The position numbers were made by a program, and so were the translations under genes. From positions 445,803-509,802 of the forward strand of contig JAJDCG010000001.1 in NCBI GenBank assembly GCA_029260965.1: a stretch of DNA of 64,000 bases, read 5' to 3'. The DNA comes from Candidatus Levyibacteriota bacterium (lineage in GTDB: Bacteria; Patescibacteriota; Microgenomatia; Levybacterales; UBA12049). Below are positions 464 to 41,647 of the stretch, in pieces. A model generated the notes under the pieces. The model was given only the letters and a program-made list of their open reading frames with translations, searched no databases and was not told where the DNA came from. Positions within the stretch are counted from its first letter, which is position 1, and every line of letters begins with the position of its first letter.

Positions 464-3379
464 ATGAAACAAGCAAGAAAAATTATCCTCTTTTTGTTAT
501 CCCTCTTTTTACCATTTCTATTTGTAAGATTCACAGATAGTGTCCATGCAGAGACACTTAAAGTATGGGAAAAAGCAGAAAATACTATTTTTCCTCATAC
601 AATCCCCGAAAGTACAATATTACCCGGCGGGAATGTGATGGTGGTAGGTCAAGGTCTTGAATTTGAGAATGAAGCGGCTGAGATCTATGATCCAGGCACC
701 AACAGCTGGAAAGTATCAGTTGGTATTTCCCCACTTAGACTTGCCAATACAGTCACCTCGCTCAAAGACGGCAGGGTTTTGGTCGCAGGCGTAGGGTATA
801 GTCTGGAGGGTGATGAGCTGACATCAGAAATTTACGATCCGCAGACTGATACGTGGAGTGATGGAGGAGACATGAAAGAACTCCGGTTCATCCATGAGAC
901 AACCCTTCTTCAGGACGGCAGGGTACTGGTCACAGGTGGTCTTTGGTTTGATCGCATGAAAAGCGCTGAGATTTATGATCCCGAGACCAATCTGTGGTCA
1001 GATGCTGCACCTATGAGCAGGGAGAGGTTTTATCATACATCGACACTTCTTAATAATGGAAAAGTGTTGGTGGTAGGCGGTCAGTTCAATGGAGCTGAAT
1101 CCATAAAGAGTGCCGAACTATATGATCCCCAGACCAACAAGTGGTCGTCAGGAGGAAATATGCATGTGACAAGATACGCGCATACCGCGACTCTGTTGCA
1201 GGATGGCCGTGTGTTGGTGGCAGGAGGAGTAGAGGATGACAGTGTACGCTCAGTTGCCGAGATTTATGATCCTGTGACAGGTATATGGACCGAGACAGGT
1301 AGCATGAACACAACAAGATTTTCCCACAAAGCAACACTGCTACCTGATGGAAAGGTGTTGGTTACAGGTGGATCAACGCAGAATAATTTTAGTGACATTT
1401 TTTATACAAATACAGCTGAGATTTATGATCCCGCAACAAGAGAGTGGGAACTCATAAATGCCATGAATGATGGTAGGGTAGACCATGCGGCTGAGCTTTT
1501 ACCAAACGGAGACGTGCTGGTAATAGGAGGATTTGGGACTGGAGAGGATTGGCTGAGAAGTACTGAAATCCTGCGTTCATCAGTACCTGCTCCATTCCTA
1601 GATCTGCCGTGGGATTATGAAGGTCAAGGTAAGGAATTTGCGGATGTGGCGCTGGAGATAAATGCGTATTTTGATCATAGCTATCCTTTGTTTGGAAGTG
1701 GTTTGGGAGAGCCATTTGAGTATTTGAACCAGATAACCACATATATGGGCGAGAATACTATAAGGAAGCCTTACTCCCGTCACGATGGTTATGATTATGG
1801 TTCATATGCATCAGGTGTTAAAAATGGCGATTCTGTGTATCCTGCTGCTGCAGGTGTAGCCGAGTATGTTCGTGATCGGGCAGGCGGTCATGGCATTTTC
1901 ATAGATCATGGCAATGGATACCAGACAAGATATTATCATCTTCAGGATATAGGTTTAATTACAAAAACACCGGGTGTAAAAATATCTGTAAATAGAAATA
2001 CGGTGATTGGAAAAGTAGGATCAACAGGTGAGCACACAACAGGACCGCATATTCATATCGGTGTTTTTCAGGATAAGAATAAGGACGGAAATTTTGATGA
2101 TAATGTGCCAGATGGTGCGACTGATCCATTTGGTTGGCAATCAACCGAACCTGATCCTTGGGAGAATTATTCATTTTTACAAAACGGTGTGCAGAAGACA
2201 GGTAATAAAAGTTATTATCTATGGAAAAATAAAATACCAAATTTGAAGAAAGGGCTTTCCTCAAACGGCGGAGTATTTCATGTCGCGAACTTCGGTCTGA
2301 CATTCCCTGAGGATGAAAGTCTGGACGGCTTGACGCTGGAAGCAAAGCTCGGCCCTGTTGAGAGAGTTACCAATTCACTTGTCTCCCTGGGTCCGGTAAT
2401 TGATGTGATCCTAAAAGATCCGCTTGGAAGCCTCATAACTATTTTGACAAAACCACTTTTGGTGACAATTGATTTTAGTAAGGCAGATCTCTCTAGATTC
2501 AAACCCGGAACAATATCAATTTATTCAAGCAGTGACAACAGAAAAACCTGGACAAAAGAGGAGTCCTACGTTGATTATCTCAATAAAAAAGCATCTGCTG
2601 AGATGGACCATTTAACACATTTTGCGTTAATGGGTGAGCGGATAGATACACAGCCTCCCGCAACAACTGTGGGGCTTGACGGTCTCAAGGGTGAGAATAA
2701 TTGGTTCCGTTCGGATGTGGAAGTGTCATTGAAAACTAGTGATAATGAGGGTGGGCTTGGAGTAGAGATTGTTTTGTATAAAATCGAGGGAGGAGAATGG
2801 CAAGAGTACAAAGAGCCATTGAATTTCACTGAAAAAGGAGAATACAAAATAGAATATTATTCACAGGATAAAGATGGAAATTTAGAAGATCCAAAATCAA
2901 CGGAATTCCATATTGATAAAACAATACCTGAGGCAAAGATTTATTTTGACAGAAACAAAGGGGAGATGGTAATAGAGGGAGTGGATGATTCAGGAGATGT
3001 TGTCTTGGAGTATAAAGATTTAGAACGAAAGCGTGAGCAGATAGTGCTTGTTGACAAAGCAGGGAATAATCTTGTTATAGAAAATAGAGAAAAAGAAAAT
3101 GATAAAAGGCTAAAATTTGAAATTTACACGCTTACCTACAATCATACAGAGTTTTTGCAGGAAAAAAACAAATTTGAGGTTATGTATGAAGAAAAAAAAG
3201 GAGAAATAAAGAAGTTGGATCAAAATTTCAAGATAAAAGACCAGGAAAAAGTAAGCCTAAAATATGACATAAAAGACAACAAAACAAAAATTAAAGAAAA
3301 TAAAGAAAAAACAGAAGCAGACGGATTAAAAGCACTTATTTTGTTCACAGATCAGGGAGAGCTCAAGTATAGTTTTTAA
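464..3379 (+). CDS. secreted multidomain protein: N-terminal signal peptide, Kelch-type beta-propeller repeats, M23 (LytM-type) metallopeptidase domain, Lys/Glu-rich low-complexity tail
   Basis: N-terminus MKQARKIILFLLSLFLPFLFVRFTDSVHA is a signal peptide. About 7 repeats of the pattern DGRVLVxGG...EIYDP(x)T..W are typical of Kelch blades. HDGYDYG...GHGIFIDHGNGYQTRYYHL...GSTGEHTTGPHIHIG matches the M23 HxxxD / HxH zinc site. The C-terminal ~150 aa are K/E-rich. Confidence 0.7.
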   Translation: MKQARKIILFLLSLFLPFLFVRFTDSVHAETLKVWEKAENTIFPHTIPESTILPGGNVMVVGQGLEFENEAAEIYDPGTNSWKVSVGISPLRLANTVTSLKDGRVLVAGVGYSLEGDELTSEIYDPQTDTWSDGGDMKELRFIHETTLLQDGRVLVTGGLWFDRMKSAEIYDPETNLWSDAAPMSRERFYHTSTLLNNGKVLVVGGQFNGAESIKSAELYDPQTNKWSSGGNMHVTRYAHTATLLQDGRVLVAGGVEDDSVRSVAEIYDPVTGIWTETGSMNTTRFSHKATLLPDGKVLVTGGSTQNNFSDIFYTNTAEIYDPATREWELINAMNDGRVDHAAELLPNGDVLVIGGFGTGEDWLRSTEILRSSVPAPFLDLPWDYEGQGKEFADVALEINAYFDHSYPLFGSGLGEPFEYLNQITTYMGENTIRKPYSRHDGYDYGSYASGVKNGDSVYPAAAGVAEYVRDRAGGHGIFIDHGNGYQTRYYHLQDIGLITKTPGVKISVNRNTVIGKVGSTGEHTTGPHIHIGVFQDKNKDGNFDDNVPDGATDPFGWQSTEPDPWENYSFLQNGVQKTGNKSYYLWKNKIPNLKKGLSSNGGVFHVANFGLTFPEDESLDGLTLEAKLGPVERVTNSLVSLGPVIDVILKDPLGSLITILTKPLLVTIDFSKADLSRFKPGTISIYSSSDNRKTWTKEESYVDYLNKKASAEMDHLTHFALMGERIDTQPPATTVGLDGLKGENNWFRSDVEVSLKTSDNEGGLGVEIVLYKIEGGEWQEYKEPLNFTEKGEYKIEYYSQDKDGNLEDPKSTEFHIDKTIPEAKIYFDRNKGEMVIEGVDDSGDVVLEYKDLERKREQIVLVDKAGNNLVIENREKENDKRLKFEIYTLTYNHTEFLQEKNKFEVMYEEKKGEIKKLDQNFKIKDQEKVSLKYDIKDNKTKIKENKEKTEADGLKALILFTDQGELKYSF

Positions 3380-3463
3380 TTTTTTATTATCAATCCTTTA
3401 ACCTCAGAAATTAGAGTTATTTATTGCGTAGCCCTGGATAGTAAAAAGTGGTAAAATATCCCT

Positions 3464-4396
3464 ATGGTTTCTATAGTTGTACCTGTTTTTAATGAGGAAG
3501 AGTCAATTGGTGCTTTTTTTACTGAGTTAAAAAAAGTTTTCCCCAAGATTAATGATACATTTGAGACGATATTTATCGATGATGGATCAACAGACAGGTC
3601 TCTTGATCTACTTAAAAATATTTCTGAAACACACAAAAACGTGCGAGTTTTTTCGTTCCGCAGGAATATGGGAAAGTCTGAAGCTTTGACTCTCGGATTT
3701 GCAAAGGCACAGGGTGACTATATAGTTACACTCGATGCCGATTTGCAGGATAAGCCTTCTGAGATTCCCTCATTACTTAAAAAAGCCAAAGAGGGTGCTG
3801 GGCTTGTCTGCGGGTGGCGAAAGAAGCGAAAAGACAAGAAGAAAATGCTGGCAATATCCAGGATTTTTAATAAAACGATGAATACGATTTTTTCACTCGA
3901 CATTCATGATTATAATTGTGGATTCAAGGTCTATACAAAAGATCTTGCTAAGTCTCTTAGGCTTTATGGAGGACTTCATAGATTTATACCATTAATTGCA
4001 GCACAAAACGGTTTTAGTGTGGTGGAGGAAGAGGTGGTTCACGAGCAGAGAAAATTTGGTAAGTCAAAATATGGATTTTCAAAAGTCTTTAAAGACATTC
4101 CAGACATGTTCACGATGCTTTTCCTTGTAAAATATGGGAAAAGGCCCATGCATTTTTTCGGAATTTTTGGAGGTGGGATCGGGCTTGTGGGTTTTATCAT
4201 TTTGGTTTATTTAACAGTTCTTCGTTTTTTGGGATATGCAATCGGTGGCAGGCCATTGCTTCTTTTTGGAATACTTCTGTTTATTACAGGACTTCAAATA
4301 TTTTTTACAGGATTTTTGGCTGATCTATTTATCAATATATCGCAGAACCGACTGGACAGTAAGCAGAGTTTTCCTCTGAAATTTTCAAGCGAATAA
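3464..4396 (+). CDS. GT2 polyprenyl-phosphate glycosyltransferase (GtrB/ArnC/DPM1-like) with C-terminal TM helices
   Basis: VSIVVPVFNEEESI, IDDGSTDRS, RRNMGKSEAL and TLDADLQDKPSEIP are spaced as in the GtrB/ArnC DXD catalytic core. Two hydrophobic C-terminal segments (FFGIFGGGIGLVGFIILVYL, LLLFGILLFITGLQIFFTGFL). Confidence 0.8.
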   Translation: MVSIVVPVFNEEESIGAFFTELKKVFPKINDTFETIFIDDGSTDRSLDLLKNISETHKNVRVFSFRRNMGKSEALTLGFAKAQGDYIVTLDADLQDKPSEIPSLLKKAKEGAGLVCGWRKKRKDKKKMLAISRIFNKTMNTIFSLDIHDYNCGFKVYTKDLAKSLRLYGGLHRFIPLIAAQNGFSVVEEEVVHEQRKFGKSKYGFSKVFKDIPDMFTMLFLVKYGKRPMHFFGIFGGGIGLVGFIILVYLTVLRFLGYAIGGRPLLLFGILLFITGLQIFFTGFLADLFINISQNRLDSKQSFPLKFSSE

Positions 4397-4452
4397 CCTA
4401 GATTTAAGATGCATGATGCAAGAATGAATTTTGTGTCATCAACTCAAAATAT

Positions 4453-5028
4453 ATGAAAATAGGAATAGACATATCACAGACAGCATACGAAAATACAGGT
4501 GTTGCAAATTATGTGCGGAATTTGGTTGAGAATCTGGCAAAAATAGATAAGGAAAATGAATATATTCTTTTCTTTTCTTCTCTCAGAAAGGATATTCCCA
4601 GGTTTGTTAAGGATTTAATGAGGAATAATAAGAGATTTACTTTGAGAAGAAAAAGATTGCCCCCAACAATGTTGGATGTTTTTTGGAACAAGCTCCATGT
4701 AATGCCAATTGAAGATGTGGTTGGTGATGTGGATGTGTTTGTTTCAAATGATTGGGTTCAGCCCCCGACAAGACACGCAAAGATGGTTACTGTTTTGTAT
4801 GATTTGATCATTTATAAATATCCCGAAGAAACACACAATATGTTTAAATTTAATTTTAGAAGTATGAATATATCGCCAAATATAGTTGCATCGCAAAGAA
4901 AAAGATTGGATTGGGTAAAAAAGGAATGCGAGATGATCATTTGTATTTCTGAACAGACAAAAAAGGATGCAATTGAAATACTTGGTATTGAGGAGAATAG
5001 GCTGCGTGTGGTGAGGCCGGGGATTTAG
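4453..5028 (+). CDS. GT4 glycosyltransferase N-terminal domain only (191 aa); truncated paralog of the 14605..15726 gene, probably a gene remnant
   Basis: MKIGIDISQTAYENTGVANYVRNLVENLAKIDKENEYILFF is close to the N-terminus of ORF 14605 (MKIGIDCRLWSQTGVGRYIRNLVTELSKIDKTNEYVLFV). The ORF stops about where the C-terminal Rossmann domain (the EGFG motif region) should begin. Confidence 0.55.
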   Translation: MKIGIDISQTAYENTGVANYVRNLVENLAKIDKENEYILFFSSLRKDIPRFVKDLMRNNKRFTLRRKRLPPTMLDVFWNKLHVMPIEDVVGDVDVFVSNDWVQPPTRHAKMVTVLYDLIIYKYPEETHNMFKFNFRSMNISPNIVASQRKRLDWVKKECEMIICISEQTKKDAIEILGIEENRLRVVRPGI

Positions 5029-5070
5029 CCCCCTGGATGTAGGCATAGGATGTAGGATGTAAGATCTTAT

Positions 5071-5147
5071 ATAAATCATAAATCATAAATCATAAATCAT
5101 AAATCATAAATCATAAATCATAAATCATAAATCATAAATCATAAATC
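5071..5147. repeat. perfect heptanucleotide microsatellite (ATAAATC)x11 in the GT4-GT4 intergenic region, preceded by GGATGTAGG x2
   Basis: Read directly: 11 tandem copies of ATAAATC at 5071-5147, ending 5 nt before the ATG at 5153. GGATGTAGG occurs twice at about 5034-5055. Confidence 0.9.
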
Positions 5148-5152
5148 TAATT

Positions 5153-6334
5153 ATGTTAATAGGTATTGATGGAAATGAAGCGAACGTAGAAAAGCGTGTT
5201 GGAATAGGTCAGTATGCATCTGAACTATTGCGGGAGTTTAGTGTTAAGGATGATGCGTTAAGGGTGAAGTTTGTGGTTTATTTAAAAAATAAACCACTTT
5301 CTCATATGCCTGAAGAGACAGAAAATTTTAAGTATAGAGTTTTTGGTCCTGGCAAGTTCTGGACACAATGGAGGCTGCCTCTTGATTTATATACTCATTT
5401 GCCAAAGCCTGATGTTTTCTTCACACCCAGTCATTATGCGCCTCGCTTCTCACCTATACCCACTGTTATATCTGTTATGGATCTCTCCTACATATATTTT
5501 CCGCAGCTTTTTAATAAAAAAGACCTCAAACAGTTGACTGACTGGACTGAGTATTCAGTAAGACAAGCTAAAAGAATTATAACAATTAGTAATTTTAGTA
5601 AAAATGATATAATTAAAGAATACGGTTTAGCCTCGGATAAAATAGAGGTTACGTATCCTGGGATTAAAAATGATTTAGGATTTATGTCTTATGACTTGAG
5701 CAGTATGAATGATTTGAAGAAAAAATATAAAATAAGTGACAATTTTGTTCTTTTTGTTGGAACGCTCCAGCCTAGGAAAAATATTGTGCGTCTTGTCGAA
5801 GCTTTTTCAAAGATCAAGGATCAGACTTACCTGCCAGTACGGCAGGGATCTAAAAAAGATTCCTCGGCTGCGCCTCAGGATGATATTCAACTTGTGATTG
5901 TTGGTAAGAAGGGTTGGCAGTATGAGGAAATACTAGATGCGCCTCGTAAATTTGGTATAGAGAAATATGTAAAATTTCTTGATTCGGTTGATGACAGTGA
6001 CCTTTCTGTGTTATATAAGAATGCGGTTTGTTTTGTTCTTCCCTCACTTTACGAAGGGTTTGGTTTACCAGTGCTTGAGGCAATGCGCGAGGGATGCCCT
6101 GTTATTGCTAGCAATGTATCATCTCTTCCTGAGGCTGGTGGGGATGCGTGTCTTTACGTTGATCCAGAGGATGCGGATGATATTGCTCTTAAAATAAAGC
6201 AACTAATATCTGACAAGAAGTTGAGAAAATTATTGGTTGAAAAAGGTAAAAAACAAGTTTCACGTTTTGACTGGGAAAAAACGGCAAAACAAACACTAAG
6301 GGTTTTGGAAGAAGCAGCAAGGGACGATAAATGA
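5153..6334 (+). CDS. GT4 (GT-B fold) glycosyltransferase
   Basis: N-terminus MLIGIDGNEANVEKRVGIGQY. C-terminal domain has EGFGLPVLEAMREGCPVIASNVSSLPE, the GT4 nucleotide-sugar binding motif. Confidence 0.8.
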   Translation: MLIGIDGNEANVEKRVGIGQYASELLREFSVKDDALRVKFVVYLKNKPLSHMPEETENFKYRVFGPGKFWTQWRLPLDLYTHLPKPDVFFTPSHYAPRFSPIPTVISVMDLSYIYFPQLFNKKDLKQLTDWTEYSVRQAKRIITISNFSKNDIIKEYGLASDKIEVTYPGIKNDLGFMSYDLSSMNDLKKKYKISDNFVLFVGTLQPRKNIVRLVEAFSKIKDQTYLPVRQGSKKDSSAAPQDDIQLVIVGKKGWQYEEILDAPRKFGIEKYVKFLDSVDDSDLSVLYKNAVCFVLPSLYEGFGLPVLEAMREGCPVIASNVSSLPEAGGDACLYVDPEDADDIALKIKQLISDKKLRKLLVEKGKKQVSRFDWEKTAKQTLRVLEEAARDDK

Positions 6335-6984: not shown

Positions 6985-7869
6985 ATGTTGCTTTCAATTA
7001 TTATAGTAAATTATAAAAAGCCTGAAATGACTTTTTCCTGCATAGACTCTATTTATTCAAATTTAGGCAAGGAAATTGGGGCGAGCATTGTGGAGGTTGT
7101 TTTGGTGGACAACGGATCAGATAAAAATGATCTGGGAAAACTCCGAAGCCTACTGGGTGAGAGAAAATATAAAAATTTCTCCCTCATAATAAATAAAGAG
7201 AATGGTGGTTTTTCAATTGGTTGTAATACGGGTGCCAAGTCTGCGAAGGGTGATTTGCTACTATTTCTTAATAATGATACTATCATTACAGATCGACGCC
7301 TCATGGACATGGCGTTTTTTCTCAATAATGGAGGGCATATTTCTATACTTGGTGGCAGCATGGTCAATGCCGATGGAACAGACCAGTCTTCATTTGGTAA
7401 GTTTTATACACCGTTTTATGTAGCACTTTTTATTTTGGGATTGGAACGTTTGGGAACGGTTAGTAAAAGTCCAAAGGATGTTAGCAAAGTTGATTGGGTT
7501 AAGGGAAGTTTGCTCATGGTAAAGCGAAAAGTTTTTGAGGAATTAAATGGTTTTGATGAGAAGATATTTATGTATATGGAAGACGTGGAGTTTTGTTATA
7601 GAGCAAAAAATGCCGGTTTTGATACTTATTTTTATCCATATATTTCAATAATACATAAAGATCAAGGATCATCAAGTAGGAGTTTTGCAGTGGTCAATAT
7701 ATATAAAAGCCTTTTATATTTCTACAAAAAACATAGAGGTGTTGTTGAGTATTGGTTTGTGAAATACGCTCTCATGGTAAAGGCATTAATTTTGATTATC
7801 GTTGGTAGAATAATCAGAAATTCTTATTTAATTACAACTTATGAAAAAGCTCTTGCAGTTGCACGATAA
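6985..7869 (+). CDS. GT2 glycosyltransferase (paralog of 13672..14583)
   Basis: MLLSIIIVNYKKPEMT, VDNGSDKND, FLNNDT, EDVEFCYRAKNAGF. Start set at the ATG at 6985; the track start 6943 would overlap the acetyltransferase. Confidence 0.75.
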   Translation: MLLSIIIVNYKKPEMTFSCIDSIYSNLGKEIGASIVEVVLVDNGSDKNDLGKLRSLLGERKYKNFSLIINKENGGFSIGCNTGAKSAKGDLLLFLNNDTIITDRRLMDMAFFLNNGGHISILGGSMVNADGTDQSSFGKFYTPFYVALFILGLERLGTVSKSPKDVSKVDWVKGSLLMVKRKVFEELNGFDEKIFMYMEDVEFCYRAKNAGFDTYFYPYISIIHKDQGSSSRSFAVVNIYKSLLYFYKKHRGVVEYWFVKYALMVKALILIIVGRIIRNSYLITTYEKALAVAR

Positions 7870-10800
7870 ATATACATTAAAATTCTTGACAGCAGGACTG
7901 ATACTCTTTACAGTCCTTTACCCAAAATTACCATCCATTAATATCCTTAATACATGGGTGTATATTCGGCTTGAAGATTTTTTGATTCTTGGCACAACGA
8001 TAATTTGGTTTATTCAGTTAGTACGTAAAAAAGTCACAATATTCAAACCCATGCTTTCGGTTATTGGGACATACTGGTTGGTTGGTCTTGTTTCCTTAGT
8101 TTTTTCAATAATTTTTATTGCACCACAGCTCCCGCAACTTTTCCCGCATGTTGCAGTACTGTCATTTTTTAGAAGAATTGAATATATGATTCTTTTCTTT
8201 ATCGCCTTTTCAACGATAAGAAGCAAATCTGACATAAAGGATTATTTTGTAGTTTTGGCAGTGACTGTATTTTTAGCGTTTTTATATGGTATTGGGCAGC
8301 GTTATTATATAGTTCTTTGGAGTTTCTTTCCTCATATTAATCAAGCTCAATTTTGTTTTCCTTCTTTTCAGACAGGAAACGAGGAATTTGCCAAAGGGAT
8401 ACCTCTTTGTCTCCCACCAGGTGGCAGAATTACATCAACGTTTGGTGGATCATACGATCTAGCAGCATACACAGTCCTTGTTCTACCCATAATATTTGGT
8501 ACGTTTCTTTCTATTAGGCAAAAATTGTGGAAGCTCTTAACAGGTTTGGTTTTTTTGAGTGGAGTGATCCTTCTTGTGTTGACTGCACAGCGGGCTGCTT
8601 TTGTTGCATACATAATTGGAAGTATTTTTACACTAATTTTATATAAGAAGAAATGGTGGATAATACCCCTTTTGGTTGTTAGCTTTTCTTTTTTGATTCT
8701 TTTCAGTGAATCAACTGCAAAGAGATTTCTTTCAACCTTTAGGGTTACAAATGTAGTAGTTGATCAAGATGGGAGGCTGGTCGGGGATGCATCAATTGAT
8801 GATGAGATTGATCCTATTACAAAAACCAGACGTCCAAAATCCGGACAGGATTTACCTGAAGGATCAGCATTTTTAGGTTTAGTTCAGGATGAAGAAATAG
8901 AAACAGATACAGCACTTATTGAAAGAACGCTTACTCCAGAGGAGGCTAGGAGATTACGGCTTGAGAGTGGTAGCGTACAGATATCAACAATATCAGGAAG
9001 TTTTTTAGTAAGAAAAGTTTTGGTTTATGATATTTCATTCACTACGCGTTTTCAGGCAGAGTGGCCCAATGCCTGGCGCGCTTTTCAGAGAAATCCTGCG
9101 TTAGGAAGTGGTTATTCGAGTATTACTCTTGCAACGGATAATGACTATTTTAGAGCACTAGGTGAGACAGGCCTTTTCGGATTATTTAGTTTTATGGGAG
9201 TGTTTGTGATGCTCTGGGTGGTGTTTAGGAAGCTTGTGCCTTTATCTGGTAATTCGATAACAGCAGGATTTGCATACGGATTAGCAGGTGGAGTGATCGG
9301 ACTTCTTGTAAATGCAACACTTATTGATGTTTTTGAAGCATCAAAGGTCGCAGAGGGATTGTGGATTTTGGCAGGGGTTGCAGTTGGATCCCTATTATTG
9401 TATCAAAAAAAGAAAATATCGTACTCAAGTGAGTTTATTAAAACTCTGACTAGTAATACAGCATACATTTTTTATCTAATTCTTTTGATCTTATTCATTT
9501 TCTTACCGACAATGAGTAATTATTTTGTCGCAGATGATTTTACCTGGTTGAGGTGGGCAGCAGAGGACAGTCTCTCGGGATTGCCAAGTCACTTTATTAA
9601 TTCACAGGGATTTTTCTATAGACCACTTGATAAGATTGTTACTTATTTTCTATATACAGTTTTTTCATTCCAACCACATGGATATCATTTTTTCTTAATT
9701 TTCCTCCACCTCATTGCTATAATTGGAGTTTATTTTTTTGCAAAACAAATCACTAAGGATAAGTTATTTGCATTTTTGGTATCCTTGATTTTCGCAGTAC
9801 ACCCTACACATGCTGAGAATGTATTTTGGTACTCAGGGCTTTCTAGCGTTCTTTCTGCTGTTTTTATAATTTATGCAGCTATTTGTTTTTATAGATTTAG
9901 AGAGAGGAAATCTGTTTTTTCATATTTTTTGGCTTTTGTTCTGAGCATCTTTGCTTTTTCTTCCTATGAAATAGCAGTCTCAATTCCATTTTTGTTTCTT
10001 GTAATTGATATATTTTTATTTAAAGCAACAAAAAAGCTCAAATATTATTTGCCACATGTACTTTTTATTTTGCTTGTCCCTTTTTATTATTTACTCAGAG
10101 AGCTAACTAACACTTTCCAAAACGGAGGTGATTATTCATATAATTTAATCAAAATAGTACCAAATGTAATGGGTAACATCCTGGGCTATGTAGGAATGTT
10201 TATAAGCGGTGAGTCATTTATCCCTGTCTACAATCTCCTGAGGGGGTCTCTTAGGGAAAGCGCATTTTCTATTGGTATTGTATTGACCGTCTCATTAGCA
10301 GCTATCGGTTTTCTGTTTTATATAAACAGAAGTATTATGGGTAAGCTGTTGAAGAACCGCATGTCAGGACAGATAATGTTTGGAATAGCTTTTGCATTCT
10401 TTTCGCTTCTTCCCTTTCTGCCTCTTGGGAATATTGCCCCACGGTATCTTTATTTATCATCTGTTGGGTTTTCAATAAGTGCGGTACTCATCATGTATGT
10501 TCTATCTAGATATAAAAGATTTCTCTTGGTATTGGTTGTTGCTGTGATTGTAGCTATTGGCGCTATCCAGCTTGATAGGGCCAGTGACAGATGGAAAGAT
10601 GCAGGATATGTTACGCAAAATACTCTATATTTTTTCAGGAAAAACTATGACGATCTAAAACCAGCTGACAAAATCTATTTTGTTGACACTCCAGTGACTT
10701 ACAAAGGTATATGGACTTTCCCGACAGGATTAAATGATGCTCTTTGGTTTATTTATAGAGATGATCTTCCCCAAGTGAATTTGGCTGATTCAATAGAAGA

Positions 10801-18625: not shown

Positions 18626-20608
18626 ATGGGTGGATTTGATAAGATTGAGCTAGGTAAAAAAGAGGAATCTAGAAAAGATACACTGAGTAGTGGAGGTCAG
18701 GATTTTGCCCGCATGCAGAGCGGTACCAGTTTTATGAGTAGAAGAAGTGGGAAAAAGAAATTCAAATTTTCAAGAAAGAAAACCTCAATAATAGCAGGTG
18801 TGCTTGCTGCTATCCTGGTGTTGGTAGGAATTCCAGCATATCTTACTTACGATTCTGGTCTTAAGACATATAGGCAAGCAAAGCTGGTTGCAGCAGCCAT
18901 GGATACTCAGAATGTCGAGCAGGCATCAAAAGAAATTGAAATCACGAGAAAGCATCTTAAAAACACTCAACGCAGTTTTAAATTTCTCATTCCTTTTAAA
19001 TTTGTGCCTGTTATTGGTTGGTACTATAGTGATTTAGGGCATATGCTAAATGCTGGTTCACATGGGCTTGAGGCAGCAACTGTTGCTACAGATGCAATAA
19101 AACCATATGCAGACGTGTTGGGTCTCAAGGGAGAAGGAAGTTTTTCAGAAGGATCAGCAGAAGATAGGATAAAGACTGCTGTTCTGACAATAGGAAAGAT
19201 TACTCCTGAGGTTGATAGAATAGCTGTCTCTCTTGAGAAAGTTCAGGTCGAGATTGATGAAGTAAATCCTGATCATTATCCTGCGTTTTTGTTTGGTCCG
19301 AGTTTTAAATCTCGTCTTGAGAATCTTAAAAAAATAACAGATCAGGGAGTTAGTTTTGTGACAGATGCAAAACCTTTGGTAAAAGTGCTTCCATCGCTTC
19401 TTGGTGAGGAGGAACCAAAGAAATATCTAATTTTGTTCCAGAACGACAAGGAGCTTAGACCAACAGGAGGATTTATAACTGCATTTGCTATCTTCAATGT
19501 AGATAAGGGTGTTATAAAAATTGAGAGGTCTGATGATATATATGATCTTGATAATTCCATATCTGGTAAGCCTCCAGCACCTGATGCAATTCAGAGATAC
19601 CTGGCAAACGTATCGGTTCTCAATCTCCGTGACAGTAACGTTTCTCCTGACTTTATAGAGTCGATGGAGACGTTTAATTCTCTTTATGAAAAATCAGGAC
19701 AAAGCGTTGATGTGGACGGAATTATTGCGCTGGATACAAGTGTTTTGGTGTCAACCATAAAAGTTTTGGATGATCAGGTACAGGCAGGTGGCATGACATT
19801 TAATACACAGATTGACGAGCGTTGTGATTGTCCACAGGTTATTTATGAGTTAGAAAATACAATATCCCGTCCTGTAAATTATGTCAAAACAGATCGCAAG
19901 AGTTTGATTGGAGAGCTTTTGCAGGCTATTATGACCAAGGCATTCTCATCAAGCCCCAAGATTTATTGGGGACCACTATTTCAGACAATACTTACAGAGG
20001 CTGATCAGAAGCACGTACTTGTTTATCTCTACAACAAAGAGGCACAGCAGGGAATCGAGGCACTTAATTATGCAGGGCGCATCAGAGATTTTGAGGGTGA
20101 TTATCTACACATCAATGAGAGTTCTTTTTCTGGGGCAAAGGTAAATATCTTCCTTGAGGAGGAGGTCGAAAATAAATACGAGGTTGATAAAGAAGGTATT
20201 GTTACAAAGACTGTAACTATTACTTATAAAAATCCATACCCTCCGTCTGATTGTAATCTCGAGTCAGGAGGTTTATGTTTGAATGCTGAATATAGGGATT
20301 GGTTGAGGATTTATGTACCTCAGGGAAGTGAGTTGGTTGATAGCGAAGGTTCTCAGGTAAAAATAGAAACGTCTGAAGAGTTCGGAAAGACGCTTTTTGA
20401 AGGTTTTATTACGGTGAGACCTCAGGGTTCAAAGAAATTTTCTATCACATATAAGCTTCCATTTAAGCTTGAAAAAGGATCACCACTTCCTCTTATGATA
20501 CAAAAACAGCCAGGCACCCATGGTAATGTATATACAAATGTTGTTAATGGTAAGACTATTGAGACATTTCCTCTCTTGACAGATAAAGAAGCTTTGCTCA
20601 AGATATAA
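18626..20608 (+). CDS. hypothetical 660-aa N-terminally membrane-anchored extracytoplasmic protein (possibly DUF4012-like)
   Basis: Basic N-terminus, one TM (IIAGVLAAILVLVGIPAYLTY), then a large soluble domain with no catalytic motif I recognise. Sits at the edge of the glycan cluster. Confidence 0.5.
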   Translation: MGGFDKIELGKKEESRKDTLSSGGQDFARMQSGTSFMSRRSGKKKFKFSRKKTSIIAGVLAAILVLVGIPAYLTYDSGLKTYRQAKLVAAAMDTQNVEQASKEIEITRKHLKNTQRSFKFLIPFKFVPVIGWYYSDLGHMLNAGSHGLEAATVATDAIKPYADVLGLKGEGSFSEGSAEDRIKTAVLTIGKITPEVDRIAVSLEKVQVEIDEVNPDHYPAFLFGPSFKSRLENLKKITDQGVSFVTDAKPLVKVLPSLLGEEEPKKYLILFQNDKELRPTGGFITAFAIFNVDKGVIKIERSDDIYDLDNSISGKPPAPDAIQRYLANVSVLNLRDSNVSPDFIESMETFNSLYEKSGQSVDVDGIIALDTSVLVSTIKVLDDQVQAGGMTFNTQIDERCDCPQVIYELENTISRPVNYVKTDRKSLIGELLQAIMTKAFSSSPKIYWGPLFQTILTEADQKHVLVYLYNKEAQQGIEALNYAGRIRDFEGDYLHINESSFSGAKVNIFLEEEVENKYEVDKEGIVTKTVTITYKNPYPPSDCNLESGGLCLNAEYRDWLRIYVPQGSELVDSEGSQVKIETSEEFGKTLFEGFITVRPQGSKKFSITYKLPFKLEKGSPLPLMIQKQPGTHGNVYTNVVNGKTIETFPLLTDKEALLKI

Positions 20609-20629: not shown

Positions 20630-21172
20630 ATGCGTAATTTTAAAACAGAAGGTATTATTATCAAGAGGCGAAATTTTCAGGATCAGGACCGTATTCTGAC
20701 GATATTTACACCGTTTAATGGCAAGATTTCCGTCCGCGGTACAGGAGTACGCAAGATCACAAGTCGTAGATCAGGCCACATAGAGCTTCTTAACCACAGC
20801 ATGCTTACTTTATATCAGGGCAAATCCTTTCCTGTGCTTACTGAGGCTGCAACTATCAATAATTTTTCAGAAATAAAAAAAGATCTTGATACCATGGGGT
20901 TTGCGTATCATATTTGTGAATTGGTAGATGGTCTGTGTCCTGAGAATCAAGAAAATGTGCAAGTTTTCTCGCTTCTCAAAGATACGCTTATGAGTCTGGA
21001 GGCAGATCTGGACAAGAGATCAATTGTCAATGAGTTTGAGATGAAACTTCTTGCCATGCTTGGGTTTTGGAACAAGGTTGATTACGCTCAGGTATTTGAT
21101 ACTCAGAGTTTTATCGAGAACATCCTCGAGCGTCGTCTCAAATCCCGCAGAATCTTCACCAAAATTAACTAA
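20630..21172 (+). CDS. recO: DNA repair protein RecO (short form, 180 aa)
   Basis: EGIIIKRRNFQDQDRILTIFTPFNGKISVRGTGVRKITSRRSG...LTLYQGKSFPVLTEA aligns with the RecO OB-fold N-terminus (EGIVLR..YGESD.IV.LLT...GK...A.GAR). Confidence 0.7.
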   Translation: MRNFKTEGIIIKRRNFQDQDRILTIFTPFNGKISVRGTGVRKITSRRSGHIELLNHSMLTLYQGKSFPVLTEAATINNFSEIKKDLDTMGFAYHICELVDGLCPENQENVQVFSLLKDTLMSLEADLDKRSIVNEFEMKLLAMLGFWNKVDYAQVFDTQSFIENILERRLKSRRIFTKIN

Positions 21173-21212: not shown

Positions 21213-21461
21213 ATGAGAGAGAGGGGTTTATCCAGAATTGGTCAGGATCCAGAGCTTAAAGCAACATATGTTTTGCAAGAAGCGTTGGGAGGGTTTGATA
21301 GAAAGCTTAGAATGAATCCAGAAAGACGAGAGGGAGAAAGCCCACTAATTAATAATAGAGCTGGCGCAGAGGAACTAATTGGAAAAATAGGCGGAACTGC
21401 AGGTTTTATAAAGATTCTCAATGTGGTGGTTTTGAGCGATAGGAAAACTGTTAAAAAATAA
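21213..21461 (+). CDS. small hypothetical ORF (82 aa) in the recO-glyQS spacer
   Basis: Internal Met of track ORF 21051..21461; the long form would overlap recO. No motif. Could instead be non-coding. Confidence 0.2.
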   Translation: MRERGLSRIGQDPELKATYVLQEALGGFDRKLRMNPERREGESPLINNRAGAEELIGKIGGTAGFIKILNVVVLSDRKTVKK

Positions 21462-21544: not shown

Positions 21545-23017
21545 ATGGCATCAGACAAGATGGAAAAGATTGTAGCACTGGCAAAGCGACGGGGATTTAT
21601 CTACCCTGGATCAGAAATTTACGGCGGGCTTGCCAATACTTATGATTACGGACCGCTTGGCACTGAGCTTCTCAGAAACATAAAAGACCTTTGGTGGAGG
21701 ATGTTTGTACAAAAACGTTCAGATATAGTTGGTCTTGATGCCAGTCTTATCTCACACCACAAGATCTGGGAAGCATCAGGTCATACTGCAGGCTTTGCCG
21801 ATGCGATGATAGATTGTAAGAACTGCAAGGCGCGGATGAGAGCCGATCATTTATTAGAAGATTGCATAAGCAAGGGTGTAAATTTTTCTTTATTAAAGCA
21901 GACTTTATTGTCTCCAAATAATAAAACATTTAATAATGCTGAAAAGAAAATATTAGATAGTGTTGTTACAACAAATAAGGTTGAAGGATTATCAGTTGAA
22001 ATATTAAATAAATTAATACTTTTTTTAAAACCAAAATGCCCAAATTGTGGGAAAATTGATTGGACAGATGTTCGCAAGTTTAATCAGCTTTTTCCTGTTC
22101 AGCTAGGGATAGTTGAGGGAGATAAAGGTTTGGCTTATCTGAGAGGAGAGACAGCACAGGGAATGTTTATCAATTTCAAAAATGTGGTTGATTCAACAAG
22201 AGTAAGACTTCCCTTTGGGATTGCGCAGCTTGGGAAAGGATTTAGAAATGAAATAACGCCAGGTAATTCGGTTTTTCGGACAATTGAGTTTGACATGGGT
22301 GAGATTGAGTATTTTTTTGATCCCAAGCAAAGTAACTGGCAGGAATTGTTTGAGGAATGGAAAGCAGAAATATGGGATTTTGTGATTAAAAAGCTGGGAA
22401 TTGATGAGACCAATCTCCGTTGGAGAGAACACGCAAATGAGGAAAGATCTTTTTACAGCGAGCGGACAATTGACCTGGAGTACAAATTTCCATTTGGCTT
22501 CAAAGAACTTTGGGGGCTTGCATATCGTACTGACTATGATCTAACTCAGCACATGGATCTTTCAAAGAAAGATTTGACAATAGTTGATCCTCAGACTGGG
22601 ATAAAGACTCTGCCTCATGTGATAGAGCCTGCAGTTGGAATTAACCGTTTGCTGCTTATGATTCTGGTAGATTCATATAGAGAAGAAGAAAATAGAGTTG
22701 TTCTCCAGATTCATCCCAAGCTTGCGCCATATAAAGTGGCTGTATTTCCGCTTCTTGGTAATAAAGAAGAGTTGATTACAAAGGCAAAAAACGTTTATGA
22801 TGATTTGAAAAAAGACTTTATGGTGGCATTTGACGATCGGGGGAATATAGGCAAGCGGTACATGAGCCAGGACGAGGCAGGAACGCCCTGGTGCGTGACA
22901 GTTGATTTTGACACGCTTGATGATGACACAGTGACAATCAGAGACCGCGACACAGCCGAGCAGGAAAGGGTAAAAATAAAGGATTTGGCTGATTATTTTT
23001 CTAAAAAACTTCAATAG
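21545..23017 (+). CDS. glyQS: glycine--tRNA ligase, dimeric class II (GlyQS type), with a Cys4 insertion
   Basis: IYPGSEIYGGLANTYDYGPLGTELLRNIKDLWW...HHKIWEASGHTAGFAD is the GlyQS N-terminal signature. Anticodon-binding C-terminus present. Insertion containing CKNCK...CPNCGK. Confidence 0.85.
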   Translation: MASDKMEKIVALAKRRGFIYPGSEIYGGLANTYDYGPLGTELLRNIKDLWWRMFVQKRSDIVGLDASLISHHKIWEASGHTAGFADAMIDCKNCKARMRADHLLEDCISKGVNFSLLKQTLLSPNNKTFNNAEKKILDSVVTTNKVEGLSVEILNKLILFLKPKCPNCGKIDWTDVRKFNQLFPVQLGIVEGDKGLAYLRGETAQGMFINFKNVVDSTRVRLPFGIAQLGKGFRNEITPGNSVFRTIEFDMGEIEYFFDPKQSNWQELFEEWKAEIWDFVIKKLGIDETNLRWREHANEERSFYSERTIDLEYKFPFGFKELWGLAYRTDYDLTQHMDLSKKDLTIVDPQTGIKTLPHVIEPAVGINRLLLMILVDSYREEENRVVLQIHPKLAPYKVAVFPLLGNKEELITKAKNVYDDLKKDFMVAFDDRGNIGKRYMSQDEAGTPWCVTVDFDTLDDDTVTIRDRDTAEQERVKIKDLADYFSKKLQ

Positions 23018-23066
23018 AGTCCTATAGCTCTTGAAAAAATGAATTTCTTGAGTTATAATTCGCATA

Positions 23067-24161
23067 ATGAATGCACCGGATAGGCTCTGTGCTTATGCTC
23101 CACAAGATGAACGCAATGCCCGTCGTTCATTACTTCCAGCTGTCATTACTATCTACATAAACGAAGCTGTGAAAAGGGCAAGAAGAACACCAGCTGTAAA
23201 CGAAGTTTTTCAATTTCCATTACGGAATGCTAAGATTGAGGGTATAAATTTTTGTCCAGCCGTTACAAGCACTTTTGCTATTTTTACAAAAGCAGCACAT
23301 GTATTAGGGGATGGATGGCAGATGAGCGAGATCTTAACAGATGATCAAAGAAATATCCTAGATGGAGCCATAGAATTTGGCGCTGATGTTCCAGACAATC
23401 ACTTTAAGAATAATTTTTTAACATCATATCCTTTATTTGCTTTAGGCTTGTTACACGAGTTAATATATGCAGGTGAAATAGAAAAACCCGAAACTGTAAG
23501 GCAAGTGCTTGAGTTATTGAAAGATACTGATCTGCATGGTTTAATGCGGGAGGGAATGCATACTGCAAGTCGGGTGTGGAGTCAGGAAGCTAAAACAAGT
23601 CCGTGGGAAATTTTTCGTAATTTTAGACATTTATATAACTATGGCAAAGAGTCGCCATTTATAATCAATAATGATGGGTCTCGTTCTTTTAAATCGGAGA
23701 TTACTACTCATCTTCATGCAAAAATGAGGGCAGTAAACCAAAAGGGAGAACGCGCAGCTGTAAGTTGCCCAATTGCAGTTCGGACAATTTACGATATTAG
23801 TAACGATCCAAGTTCCTGTGCATACATTAGCGAAGACCAAAGAAGGAGCTTGATTACTCCAGATCCAAAATCAGGTCTTCCTTTGGCAACGCAGAATGAA
23901 AAAGGTGCTATCCATATTGAGTTTGATGCGCTAAATGCTTTAAGTGACTTTTTTTTAGAATTTGCTGAAAACGTAATTACGCAAAGAGGCGTACCTGTTC
24001 TGATAGATTGTAGAGGATGGCCTCACAAAGATGGCATAATTTATATTGATCAAAATGAATCTGTTCCTTCTGCATTAAAGCATGAGCCTAGGCCTGATTG
24101 CCCACTAAATAGCGATGAGAACATAATATTTGGAAATAAGCCTTGTTCTTGCGCAGCTTAG
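23067..24161 (+). CDS. hypothetical protein (364 aa), compositionally atypical
   Basis: No TM, signal or motif recognised. The 5' part is about 50 % GC against a roughly 33-36 % local background. Confidence 0.5.
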   Translation: MNAPDRLCAYAPQDERNARRSLLPAVITIYINEAVKRARRTPAVNEVFQFPLRNAKIEGINFCPAVTSTFAIFTKAAHVLGDGWQMSEILTDDQRNILDGAIEFGADVPDNHFKNNFLTSYPLFALGLLHELIYAGEIEKPETVRQVLELLKDTDLHGLMREGMHTASRVWSQEAKTSPWEIFRNFRHLYNYGKESPFIINNDGSRSFKSEITTHLHAKMRAVNQKGERAAVSCPIAVRTIYDISNDPSSCAYISEDQRRSLITPDPKSGLPLATQNEKGAIHIEFDALNALSDFFLEFAENVITQRGVPVLIDCRGWPHKDGIIYIDQNESVPSALKHEPRPDCPLNSDENIIFGNKPCSCAA

Positions 24162-24164
24162 CCT

Positions 24165-24302
24165 TCAAGTCACCCGTTTGATTCTTTGCACTGTTCGGAT
24201 GTTTCGTTTCAACCGTCTTGCGTACTCCTTTTTCGAGATACCAACTTTTAACCACGCACTAAGTAACTCTCTTTCTGTTTGAGTAAGTTTCTTGTGTTTC
24301 AT
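24165..24302 (-). pseudogene. remnant of an IS30-family transposase: N-terminal HTH only (45 codons)
   Basis: Minus-strand ORF MKHKKLTQTERELLSAWLKVGISKKEYARRLKRNIRTVQRIKRVT* matches the IS30 HTH_38 pattern LTxxERxxIxxLxxxGxSxxxIAxxLxRxxSTIxREIxRN. A GGAGGTG RBS lies 8 nt upstream. There is no DDE catalytic domain downstream. Confidence 0.5.
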
Positions 24303-24411
24303 TTATTCACCTCCCTTCTACCTCAGAAAAGCAAATTGTGCCTTAACAAGAACCTTTAGGGGATGGCGATCGTTTCTAGAACTTGGGCTTTTAAATCTGT
24401 AGAATTTACAA

Positions 24412-24420
24412 TGATATAAT
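24412..24420 (+). promoter_or_regulatory. extended -10 element TGATATAAT (second TGTATAAT at 24442-24449) upstream of ORF 24523
   Basis: Read directly; consensus TGnTATAAT. Confidence 0.3.
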
Positions 24421-24522
24421 CATTTCCCAACGCACTGTATTTGTATAATTTCACGATTAAATTATAACAGAAATTTTTCGCTTGACAGGGAGGCAGGATT
24501 TAGGATATTCTAAATTATACAA

Positions 24523-25029
24523 ATGTTTGAGAAACTAAAAAAAGATAGAAAAAGCCAAATCGTTGCCGTTATTATAGCGGTTCTTTTATTGGCTAGTGGA
24601 TATTTGCTTTTTGCAGGTAAATCCGCTCCTGAGCCTGAGGACGAAGATATAGAGACCAATATTATAGAGAAACTCACAGCTGAGGAGCTGGGGCTTACTA
24701 TGGAAGCAAAACCTGATGGTAAAGCAGTCAAGTTCATTATTGAGAATACAGAAGGAATAGAAACTATAGAATACTCTCTTTCATATGAGGCTGATTCAAC
24801 TTCACAAGAAATTGCAGAAGGGGGAGATCCTAGGGTAGGCCGTGGGATAATAGGTGAATCAGAAATAGATAACGATACGGAGCCGTTTGAATCAGAGTGG
24901 CTTGATCTTGGGTCGTGCTCCAAAAATGTTTGTCGTTATGATTCAGGTGTTGAGTCAGTTGAGCTGACACTCAAGATAGAAAAATCAGACGGAAAAATTT
25001 ATTCAGCAGAAGCCTCACTGGAGCTCTAA
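24523..25029 (+). CDS. hypothetical small acidic membrane-anchored protein (168 aa)
   Basis: Single N-terminal TM (IVAVIIAVLLLASGYLLFAG), then an acidic soluble region. No known motif. Confidence 0.5.
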   Translation: MFEKLKKDRKSQIVAVIIAVLLLASGYLLFAGKSAPEPEDEDIETNIIEKLTAEELGLTMEAKPDGKAVKFIIENTEGIETIEYSLSYEADSTSQEIAEGGDPRVGRGIIGESEIDNDTEPFESEWLDLGSCSKNVCRYDSGVESVELTLKIEKSDGKIYSAEASLEL

Positions 25030-39491: not shown

Positions 39492-40670
39492 ATGTTAATT
39501 CGTCCTCAATCAACAAATTCTGCCAAAATAAGAGTTGTCGGTATTGGCGGTGGGGGTACCAATGCGATTAATTCTATGATTGCCAATAGTTCCATAAGTG
39601 GTGTTGATTTCGTCGCTATCAACACAGACTCCCAAGCACTTCTTTTGAACAAAGCCGATTCCAAAATCCAAATAGGTGAGAATATTACCAAGGGTCTCGG
39701 ATCAGGAGGAGATCCAGAGATGGGAAGACAAGCAGCTGAAGAATCAGCAGAAAAAATAAAGAATATGCTTGAGGGATCAGACATGGTTTTTCTCACAGCA
39801 GGTATGGGTGGAGGAACAGGGACAGGAGCAACATCTGTTGTCGCCAGCATTGCAAAGGAAATAGGAGCACTGACAGTAGTTGTTGTAACCAAGCCGTTTC
39901 TTTTTGAAGGGACTCGTCGCATGGTTACAGCAGAAGAAGGTCTGGAGAGTCTTAAGGACAAAGCAGACACACTCATAGTTATTCCTAACCAGAGAATATT
40001 AGATGTGGTGGACCGTAAGCTCTCGCTTCTGGATGCATTCAAAGTGGCTGATAGCGTACTTACACAGGGAGTTCAGGGAATATCAGAAATAATTACACAA
40101 CCAGGACTTATAAATGTTGATTTTGCTGACGTACGCACGATTATGTCTGATGCTGGATCATCATTGATGGGGATTGGGTCTGGAATTGGTGAGAACAGAG
40201 CAGAATCAGCAGCGCGTGCAGCTATTTCAAGTCCGCTACTTGAGCTTTCTATGGATGGAGCTCGTGGGGTTCTTTTCAACATAGTCGGTGGTGAGGATCT
40301 AACCATGACAGAGGTTGATGAGGCAGCAAAGATTATTTCCAATGCAGCAGATCCAGATGCAAATATTATATTTGGTGCAACTATTGACGAGACCATGCAT
40401 GACCAGATCCGCATCACGGTGGTGGCAACTGGATTTGACCAGAACAAACAGCGACTGCAACAGTTCATGGTAGAACAGCCTGATCCACAGGTAGTCAGAA
40501 ATCAACAGGGAGCAAATCAAAACCAGAACCCATCCCAACAGGCAGTAGGTGAAAATGGGTCATCTGAGGATCAGGATTCTGGTAATAATGGAGATCCAGT
40601 AGTTACTAAAAAAGAAGAAAGCACAGAAGACGATTGGGACATCCCCGCATTCCTGAGGCAAAGGAATTAG
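39492..40670 (+). CDS. ftsZ: cell division GTPase FtsZ
   Basis: [28 protein letters not shown]; C-terminal tail [10 protein letters not shown]. Confidence 0.95.
40641..40670. repeat. left copy (ftsZ 3' end) of an imperfect 30-bp direct repeat; partner at 44283..44312
   Basis: atccccgcattcctgaggcaaaggaattag versus atccccgcatttctaagacagagaaattga: 23/30 identical. Both encode IPAFLRQRN*. Confidence 0.85.
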
Positions 40671-41647
40671 CTTAGTTCTTCAATCAGGCTTTTGTGCCCC
40701 AAGCTTATCCAATATTCTGTTTCTTTAGTATCGTTCCTGTTTATATACTTTTCTTGGTAACCTCCGAGGAGCTCCATTGCAACACCAGCTACTGTGTAAT
40801 CGTATAGCCATTTTCGTTCCTGTGGAGTTAATTTATTAAATTTATCATACTCATTTGCTATTAGCTCTATGCGGCTTCTCAGTGTCATTACGCTATTGTC
40901 ATCATGCATGAGATTTGCTGCTATTACTGCAATTTCTTGAATTCGTGGATACCAGTTAGCTACAGAAAAATCTAAAATATAAATATCTCCTTTTTTGCTC
41001 TTCAAGACATTCGCTTTTGTAAAATCTCCATGGACAAATGCATGTGGTAAATCGTCAGCGGGGATTGACTTATATCTTTTTATTGTTTGTTCTACGAGAG
41101 GTATGTCTTCTGGTTTTAAGTATTGTTTTGTTTTATCAAACAGTATTTGAATATTTGGGATTGCCCAACTATCGAAAATATATGTTGGTTTGTAGTCAAT
41201 TTTATTCACTTTTGCAGCTTGTTCAATAATTGATTTTCTTTCTTCATTATTTGGGGGACGATTTAGCTCAAAAAAAGTATTCCCATCTATATAATCCATT
41301 AATATAAGATTTAATCCGTTTGCTTGTTTGTCCGAATAAACAATACCACCATCGTGTTTTTGGAGGAGAGATGGGTGATTAACTCCAGAGGCGATTGCCC
41401 GTTCCATGATGGTGGTGTATCGATCTATATCCTCTGGAGTTCTGTCTTTCTGAAAGATTTTTGCTAGGTATTTATCTTTCCCTACATATATTATGACATT
41501 GCAGTCTTCATATCCAACTTCAATAACAGAAAAATCATCAGGTATTCCTATCGTATACGCTTTACTAAGTCTGTTGATAACTGGTTTGAGGTCTCCTGAA
41601 TAATTAAGTCTATTTATAGGCGTTCTTTTATTAATTTTTCCTGTCAT
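40667..41647 (-). CDS. phosphotransferase (APH/choline-kinase-like) family kinase
   Basis: YLAKIF (beta3 Lys), [12 protein letters not shown] (Brenner HGDxxxxN catalytic loop), [10 protein letters not shown] (metal-binding D). Confidence 0.7.

Follow-up and report, generated by a model that had tools for sequence, protein, structure and literature searches.

The 64,000-nucleotide (nt) stretch analysed here, positions 445,803 to 509,802 of contig JAJDCG010000001.1 from a Candidatus Levyibacteriota bacterium (assembly GCA_029260965.1), is hereafter called the window. It contains two adjacent open reading frames (ORFs) between the gene of glycyl-tRNA synthetase (GlyRS) and the dcw cluster. The larger, which we call X364, encodes a 364-amino-acid (aa) protein of an orphan family. 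The smaller, called here the HTH ORF, lies immediately downstream on the opposite strand and its 45 codons specify a product resembling the N-terminal helix-turn-helix (HTH) domain of IS30-family transposases. An earlier note had described the pair as foreign cargo delivered by an insertion sequence (IS) that has since decayed. On balance our analysis favours a different view, in which the two are unrelated, X364 being an old and native gene and the HTH ORF a later IS30-type stub. The claim of joint delivery is largely refuted by the native composition of X364 and by syntenic relatives that lack the HTH segment.

Two related loci, L001 and L087, carry orthologues of X364 (50 % and 49 % identity) in the same order as the window, RecO-GlyRS-X-TM protein-MraZ-RsmH-FtsL-PBP, in which X is the X364 gene, TM protein a 168-aa protein with an N-terminal membrane anchor (TM, transmembrane) and PBP a penicillin-binding protein. 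The identity of X, 49-54 % in three pairwise comparisons, lies within the spread of values for the neighbouring genes of GlyRS, the TM protein and FtsL. The string TCCTATAG..CTTG is common to the GlyRS-X spacers of all three loci, and upstream of X each has a promoter of the form TTGxxx-17-TATAAT followed, after 6-7 nt, by the ATG. This matching rate of divergence, together with the common spacer string and promoter layout, argues for shared descent of X. The closest GlyRS loci in GTDB species representatives, from metagenome-assembled genomes of Candidatus Levybacteria (68 % and 66 % identity), share the gene order. In the outgroups GlyRS is joined directly to the TM-protein gene, which follows within about 45 nt in L005 (Levybacteria), L007, L052 and L062, so that X364 appears as an addition at this junction; the ancestral order in Microgenomates has the 168-aa protein gene next downstream of GlyRS. 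X364 would thus have been gained at the junction once, before the lineages of the window, L001 and L087 separated. The earlier description of X364 as an accessory gene holds insofar as it was added to an older gene order, and fails insofar as it implied a recent foreign import: two relatives at about 50 % identity keep X in the same slot, with native composition and the same promoter. Its location between GlyRS and the dcw cluster is confirmed, with one more gene, that of the 168-aa protein, intervening. The features on which this argument turns are as follows.

23031 to 23059, plus strand: promoter of X364, sigma-70-type, TTGAAA-17-TATAAT (11/12 in the promoter scan).
23067 to 24161, plus strand: X364, gene of the 364-aa orphan-family protein (ORF, homologues, alignment, native composition and AlphaFold2 model).
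24162 to 24469, no strand: segment of 308 nt found in this genome alone (DNA alignment with L001 and L087).
24165 to 24302, minus strand: HTH ORF, 45 codons, with an HTH_38 (IS30-type) product (Pfam, IS30 transposase alignment, PHROG and codon adaptation index).
24308 to 24315, minus strand: Shine-Dalgarno sequence GGGAGGTG of the HTH ORF (read from the sequence).
24461 to 24488, minus strand: promoter-like site for the HTH ORF, CTGTCA-16-TATAAT with TG (10/12 in the promoter scan; extended -10).

X364 had been called atypical in its guanine plus cytosine (GC) content, a claim that did not survive comparison with the 50 window genes of at least 150 codons. Its GC (0.391, that is 39.1 %, against 0.369 ± 0.034), its GC at third codon positions (GC3; 0.271 against 0.298 ± 0.040) and its codon adaptation index (CAI; 0.695 against 0.702 ± 0.034) each lie no more than one standard deviation from the values of these genes. 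The first 100 nt, reported as about 50 % GC against a background of about 33-36 %, measure 45 % in a window of 36.7 % overall. The highest 100-nt value nearby is 47 %, and 11 % of all 100-nt windows in the 64 kb are at least as GC-rich as this start. Its mild GC enrichment is explained by the conserved motif DERNARRSLLPA encoded there, with GC-rich codons for Arg, Ala and Pro. In each genome with an X homologue, moreover, the GC of the homologue agrees with that of the host locus. By GC and codon usage X364 does not fit the compositional definition of a horizontally acquired islet; the analysis of codon usage singles out the HTH ORF as the odd piece. Among 3410 genuine 45-codon windows, its CAI of 0.564 falls in the lowest 1.6 % and its GC3 of 0.42 in the top 8.6 %.

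The DNA alignment separates the two ORFs further. In L001 and L087 the stop codon of X is almost directly followed by GCTTGACA, the conserved promoter of the TM-protein gene. At this point the window has 308 extra bases, which include the HTH ORF and 167 nt on its upstream side. We found no other copy of this segment within the window, and its two junctions share only a trivial 'AG'. Since the relatives lack the 308 nt and the codon usage of the HTH piece is unameliorated, X364 and the HTH piece appear not to have been delivered together. The HTH insertion would be the later event: had a dead stub been present while X364 diverged to 50 % identity, it would hardly still be intact.

The IS30 likeness of the HTH ORF, as the earlier note described it, is borne out. 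Its product matches the Pfam profile HTH_38 (PF13936; E = 5e-6, 26.6 bits, model positions 1-39 of 44), and its residues 1-44 align Met1 to Met1 with the IS30 family transposase WP_002397316.1 of E. faecalis (330 aa), with 20 of 44 residues identical (45 %). When a plasmid collection was searched by tblastn, the best-scoring annotated matches were all IS30 family transposases, from Enterococcus and Levilactobacillus. The product also matches the PHROG transposase profile phrog_4646 (positions 3-41 of 344), and its best match in a phage collection is a 'mobile element protein'. The ORF has its own ribosome-binding site, GGGAGGTG, 5 nt upstream of the ATG. Such a strong Shine-Dalgarno sequence sets it apart in a genome where these are rare (7 of 50 window genes have even a loose one) and, like the extended -10 promoter, distinguishes it from the host genes; it likewise points to a later and separate insertion. 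We found no DDE (rve-type) catalytic domain beside it or within the window, and tblastn of the 330-aa transposase against the window recovered a match for residues 1-44 only; the DNA beyond the stop codon of the HTH ORF is the conserved 3' end of X364. Terminal inverted repeats of IS30 elements measure about 20-30 bp and stand at both ends. The search for IS30 inverted repeats found none near the two ORFs, and no inverted-repeat pair brackets 24162-24469 or a larger unit. The only strong repeat is one of 13 nt, discussed below, and one of its arms lies in native promoter DNA. The HTH ORF thus resembles the N-terminal DNA-binding domain of IS30-family transposases in its start-to-start alignment and HTH_38 type. 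Unlike an IS30 element it ends after the HTH and has neither a DDE domain nor terminal repeats, and within the window no target duplication or further copy was found; it would be an IS stub at most. The label of IS remnant derives from the HTH alone, and the 308-nt segment probably represents what is left of the 5' part of an IS30-family element. Neither a word-based search nor tblastn against about 0.95 Mb of related loci revealed a homologue of the 45-aa product, the latter returning only the query itself, and our literature search on truncated IS30 HTH proteins yielded nothing directly relevant.

We propose the following history. A gene of the X family would have been gained once between the GlyRS and 168-aa protein genes in the ancestor of a small Levybacteria-like subclade and then inherited vertically, its composition becoming fully ameliorated to native. 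Its transcript, started at a sigma-70-type promoter of its own, would be a leaderless mRNA, as suggested by the end of this promoter 7 nt before the ATG; the arrangement is similar, with 9 nt, for the X homologues in L003, L004 and L089. Later, and in this lineage only, an IS30-family element may have inserted into the spacer of about 46 nt after the X364 stop codon, a deletion then removing its DDE domain and far end. The 45-aa ORF would be its surviving 5' end, with promoter, Shine-Dalgarno sequence and HTH. Such an element would not have delivered X364.

Several points weigh against this history. The HTH_38 score lies 0.4 bit under the gathering score of 27, the E-values of the plasmid tblastn matches are 0.08-0.2, and neither IS30 inverted repeats nor a target duplication nor a second copy was found in the window. 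The polarity of the 308-nt difference is unsettled by parsimony alone: L001 and L087 are apparent sisters, so that loss in their ancestor is as parsimonious as gain in the window. The argument for a later gain comes from codon usage and an intact ORF, measured on 45 codons only. The X family has only about ten members, and the non-syntenic ones have no taxonomic placement.

Arrival of X364 and the HTH ORF together, as cargo of an IS30-type element since decayed, would account for their adjacency (the two ORFs are convergent and their stop codons are 3 nt apart), for the IS30-like HTH and for the addition of X364 at a junction that is closed in outgroup genomes. We nevertheless consider it improbable. 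The GC, GC3 and CAI of X364 are native and its leaderless promoter is in the native style, L001 and L087 hold it in the same slot with no trace of the 308 nt, and a non-functional stub would not have kept its ORF, Shine-Dalgarno sequence and foreign codon usage across the divergence of X364. A single IS30, moreover, is not known to carry passenger genes. It could also be argued that X364 is not a gene at all, being a chance ORF or the antisense of a decayed transposase gene: it has no domain matches, and its 1.1 kb equals the span of the missing part of an IS30 transposase on the opposite strand. We give this practically no credence, and the conservation data already refute it. Ten homologues from six or more genomic contexts are conserved over their full length, promoter and start codon are conserved, and the AlphaFold2 model reaches a predicted template modelling score (pTM) of 0.80. 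The candidate of a decayed IS30 transposase antisense to X364 was rejected, the three minus-strand frames being full of stop codons and the tblastn match of the 330-aa transposase being confined to the HTH.

A third alternative concerns the HTH ORF alone. The 45-aa product could be a small protein with a working role in DNA binding, whether as a standalone HTH_38 regulator or as a fragment of a transposase that has been exapted. It would bind the sequence ATTTGTATAATTT and control its own promoter and that of the divergent 168-aa protein gene, which stands at the head of the dcw region. The two promoters stand back to back and are bracketed by a perfect 13-nt inverted repeat of ATTTGTATAATTT. 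The following features are involved.

24395 to 24407: direct copy of ATTTGTATAATTT with 2 mismatches.
24439 to 24451, plus strand: left arm of the perfect 13-nt inverted repeat ATTTGTATAATTT.
24482 to 24511, plus strand: native promoter of the 168-aa protein gene, TTGACA-18-TATTCT (promoter scan; conserved in L001 and L087).
24512 to 24524, minus strand: right arm of the perfect 13-nt repeat, situated between the -10 box of the 168-aa protein gene and its ATG.

Each arm lies just downstream of a -10 box, and the third copy is 44 nt away. Repeats of this kind occur twice in the 64 kb, against an expectation of about 0.05; among 20 shuffles, 19 contained none and the other contained one. The left arm is inside the inserted segment, and the right arm is in native DNA, which here exceeds that of L001 and L087 by 3-4 nt. 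HTH domains of IS30 bind the ends of the element, so that the copies of ATTTGTATAATTT could be binding sites of the stub protein. The ends of an Enterococcus IS30-family element were considered as a match for the 13-nt motif, and this candidate was dropped since no clear repeats were seen in that element. An intact ORF, a strong Shine-Dalgarno sequence and an extended -10 promoter would likewise suit a working regulator, as would the rarity of the repeat and the difference of its native arm from L001 and L087. Against this, the ORF is known from one sequence, neither a word search nor about 1 Mb of related loci having yielded a homologue, and gene callers skipped it on the Logan copy of the locus (L002). 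At 45 residues the product is very short to be a stable regulator. As the motif includes TGTATAAT, it may be just two extended -10 boxes, and the clustering of ATTTGTATAATTT has a P of only about 0.016. We regard a regulatory role of the 45-aa product as unlikely, and continue with the reading in which the HTH ORF is a later stub and X364 a native gene.

X364 itself belongs to a very small family. Its homologues are 347-378 aa long, and the ten aligned sequences share 27-54 % pairwise identity, with conservation running over the full length. HMMER, run exhaustively on 1.84 billion cluster representatives, found five relatives only; word-indexed searches added two at about 50 % identity and a metagenome scan one further locus. 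The family has about ten members among some 15 billion proteins. We did not detect any relative in GTDB-representative genomes, so that neither the genome of the window nor the X-bearing relatives would be species representatives in GTDB. As the earlier note had stated, the 364-aa ORF has no recognisable domain, here in Pfam or NCBIfam. The best scores of the family against Pfam, NCBIfam, PADLOC and PHROG are E = 0.04-0.3, none near a curated threshold, and a profile search of all PDB sequences returned 0 matches at E <= 10. Searches of viral contigs, PHROGs and PADLOC gave no match for X364 and pointed to no defence or phage link. The absence of a TM segment stands as well: the maximum Kyte-Doolittle mean over 19 residues is 1.25, with no hydrophobic segment, and the predicted isoelectric point is 5.8. 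The residues C234, C345, C360, C362, H320, R316, D110 and K114 are invariant across the family and H111 and H112 nearly so. They fall within motifs that include NFCPAxTST, PDHHFK, SYPxFALG, CP(I/V) and a C-terminal CxC.

The AlphaFold2 model of X364, built from seven sequences, is compact, with a predicted local distance difference test score (pLDDT) of 75 and a pTM of 0.80. Its N-terminal half is helical and its C-terminal half alpha/beta. Confidence is low, in this metal-free model, for the loop with C234 and for the 347-359 loop between C345 and C360. Modelled alone, the C-terminal half (residues 186-364) reaches only a pLDDT of 65 and a pTM of 0.36, and because of this poor result X364 is probably one compact structural unit. 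A Foldseek search of the model against PDB and viral models gave nothing at E <= 0.001. The homology and structure searches therefore brought about ten homologues and no known family or fold. The best structural neighbour, and a weak one, is 8eoh_A, human CYP8B1, which has the cytochrome P450 fold. That X364 is itself a cytochrome P450 is nevertheless highly improbable. Inspection of the X alignment found no FxxGxRxCxG haem-thiolate loop, K-helix ExxR or AGxDTT I-helix motif, there is no Pfam p450 match even at E = 10, and X364 is shorter than known P450s. Since the P450 signature motifs are absent, we do not take the weak matches as homology.

X364 may be soluble, reside in the cytoplasm and hold a metal such as Zn, or an Fe-S cluster, through C234, C345, C360 and C362, a prediction from these four invariant cysteines and H320 that we make with low confidence. 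That X364 is a Cys4 metalloenzyme is a guess, and a rather doubtful one. The PDHHFK region could be the active site, and the substrate could be a small molecule of nucleotide- or sugar-phosphate type; both are guesses. The second is prompted by operon links with phosphohydrolases of the NUDIX (L088) and HAD (L004) types. In L088, with the context MFS-X-NUDIX, the X homologue overlaps the NUDIX gene, and in L004, where it is flanked by the genes of an alpha/beta hydrolase and a HAD phosphatase, the HAD gene begins 36 nt after X. This neighbourhood signal comes from just 2-3 contexts, which counts against it. Nothing links X364 functionally to GlyRS or to cell division. A bolder and rather doubtful proposal would combine two things: X364 would found a family of cytoplasmic enzymes, undescribed so far and of the Cys4 metallo- or Fe-S kind, with no solved fold relative, patchily distributed in uncultured bacteria mostly like the Candidate Phyla Radiation (CPR) and sometimes co-transcribed with NUDIX or HAD genes, and the IS30 HTH stub would have been exapted as a mini-repressor acting at the ATTTGTATAATTT sites around the promoters at the head of the dcw region.

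Outside the GlyRS junction the family occurs in diverse surroundings. The X homologue follows TypA in L003, is divergent from VanY in L090 and adjoins DUF6602 genes and a CBASS system in the contig carrying P0003 (JGI 3300048101). In that contig the X member is about 4 kb from the CBASS-like set, which comprises SMODS, bacterial HORMA and AAA ATPase genes; PADLOC models gave no match to the X family. Three of the contexts, unrelated to one another, include a peptidoglycan peptidase gene about 0.5-4.5 kb from the X homologue, which may be coincidence: an LD-carboxypeptidase twice (L004, 13508-14479; L088, 13381-14430) and VanY once (L090, 6603-7463). In the window X364 is near the dcw cluster.

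The remaining genes of the locus, taken from the ORF list and annotation of the window, are these.

18626 to 20608: gene of a DUF4012 protein.
20630 to 21172: RecO gene.
21545 to 23017: gene of a single-chain GlyRS.
24523 to 25029, plus strand: gene of the 168-aa protein with an N-terminal membrane anchor, or TM-protein gene (ORF, homologues, hydropathy).
Downstream of the 168-aa protein gene: mraZ, rsmH, ftsL-like and PBP genes (dcw).

The 168-aa protein has its hydropathy maximum, 2.77, at residue 13 and no Pfam match. The layout of the X364 promoter is shared by GlyRS and at least six other window genes, and a loose Shine-Dalgarno-like motif was seen in only 7 of the 50 window genes. Many first genes have TATAAT 6-9 nt before the start codon, so that leaderless translation is apparently the rule in this genome; examples of such starts are 21545, 23067, 16807, 36588, 40667-41647 on the minus strand, 42083 and 51570-52322 on the minus strand. 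The purine-rich spacer of 373 nt between RecO and GlyRS contains an 82-codon ORF (21213-21461, plus strand) with TGTATAAT and 6 nt ahead of its start, again a leaderless layout. It has no Pfam match and no homologue among the related loci. The same spacer holds an unrelated 59-aa ORF in L001 and is almost absent from L005. An Rfam search around GlyRS, the RecO-GlyRS spacer and the HTH segment found no T-box and no other element.

GlyRS itself varies in length, from 490 aa in the window (21545-23017) to 460 aa in L001 (8570-9952) and 437 aa in L087 (6638-7951). The window GlyRS is nearer to that of L005 (6001-7449; 68 %) than to those of L001 (55-60 %) or L087 (48 %), whereas all other neighbouring window genes are nearer to L001 and L087 than to L005. 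This pattern points to recombination or, in L001 and L087, to faster change or a lost insertion domain. In L087 a two-ORF DUF4096/DDE_Tnp_1 transposase (2879-3678) is found just upstream of the DUF4012 gene, which is split into ORFs of 331 aa and 307 aa (4013-6017), pointing to IS activity or a frameshift near the locus in relatives too. In the Levybacteria genome RIFCSPHIGHO2_02_FULL_37_13 (L006; loci 4205-5942 and 7403-8968) the slot between GlyRS and the TM-protein gene is occupied by a 521-aa PurF-like amidophosphoribosyltransferase gene on the other, minus strand, and two more minus-strand genes lie between RecO and GlyRS.

The value of these results is mainly corrective, as X364 would be no fresh foreign import and the IS30-like piece a separate and later scar. 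X364 resembles the lineage-specific hypothetical proteins of the CPR (Patescibacteria) in forming a small, unannotated family of native composition in few uncultured genomes. It differs from the typical ones in its unusually clear invariant Cys/His motifs, in its moderately confident compact model (pLDDT 75, pTM 0.80) and in a datable insertion point within an otherwise conserved gene order. It is thus an ordinary CPR orphan gene, notable only as an uncharacterised family with clear motifs, and the IS stub is equally ordinary and unrelated to it. The suggestion that X364 is a candidate for a novel accessory function retains the uncharacterised family and the addition at the junction, and loses the foreign composition. 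Were the family indeed one of new metalloenzymes, this would add one family to the catalogue, with no bearing on a long-standing open question; within the 'dark matter' of the CPR it is a reasonable, non-urgent target for structural genomics. For the Levybacteria, the junction of GlyRS and the dcw cluster emerges as a small hotspot of gene flux, empty in L005, occupied by X364 in three genomes and by a PurF-like gene in L006.

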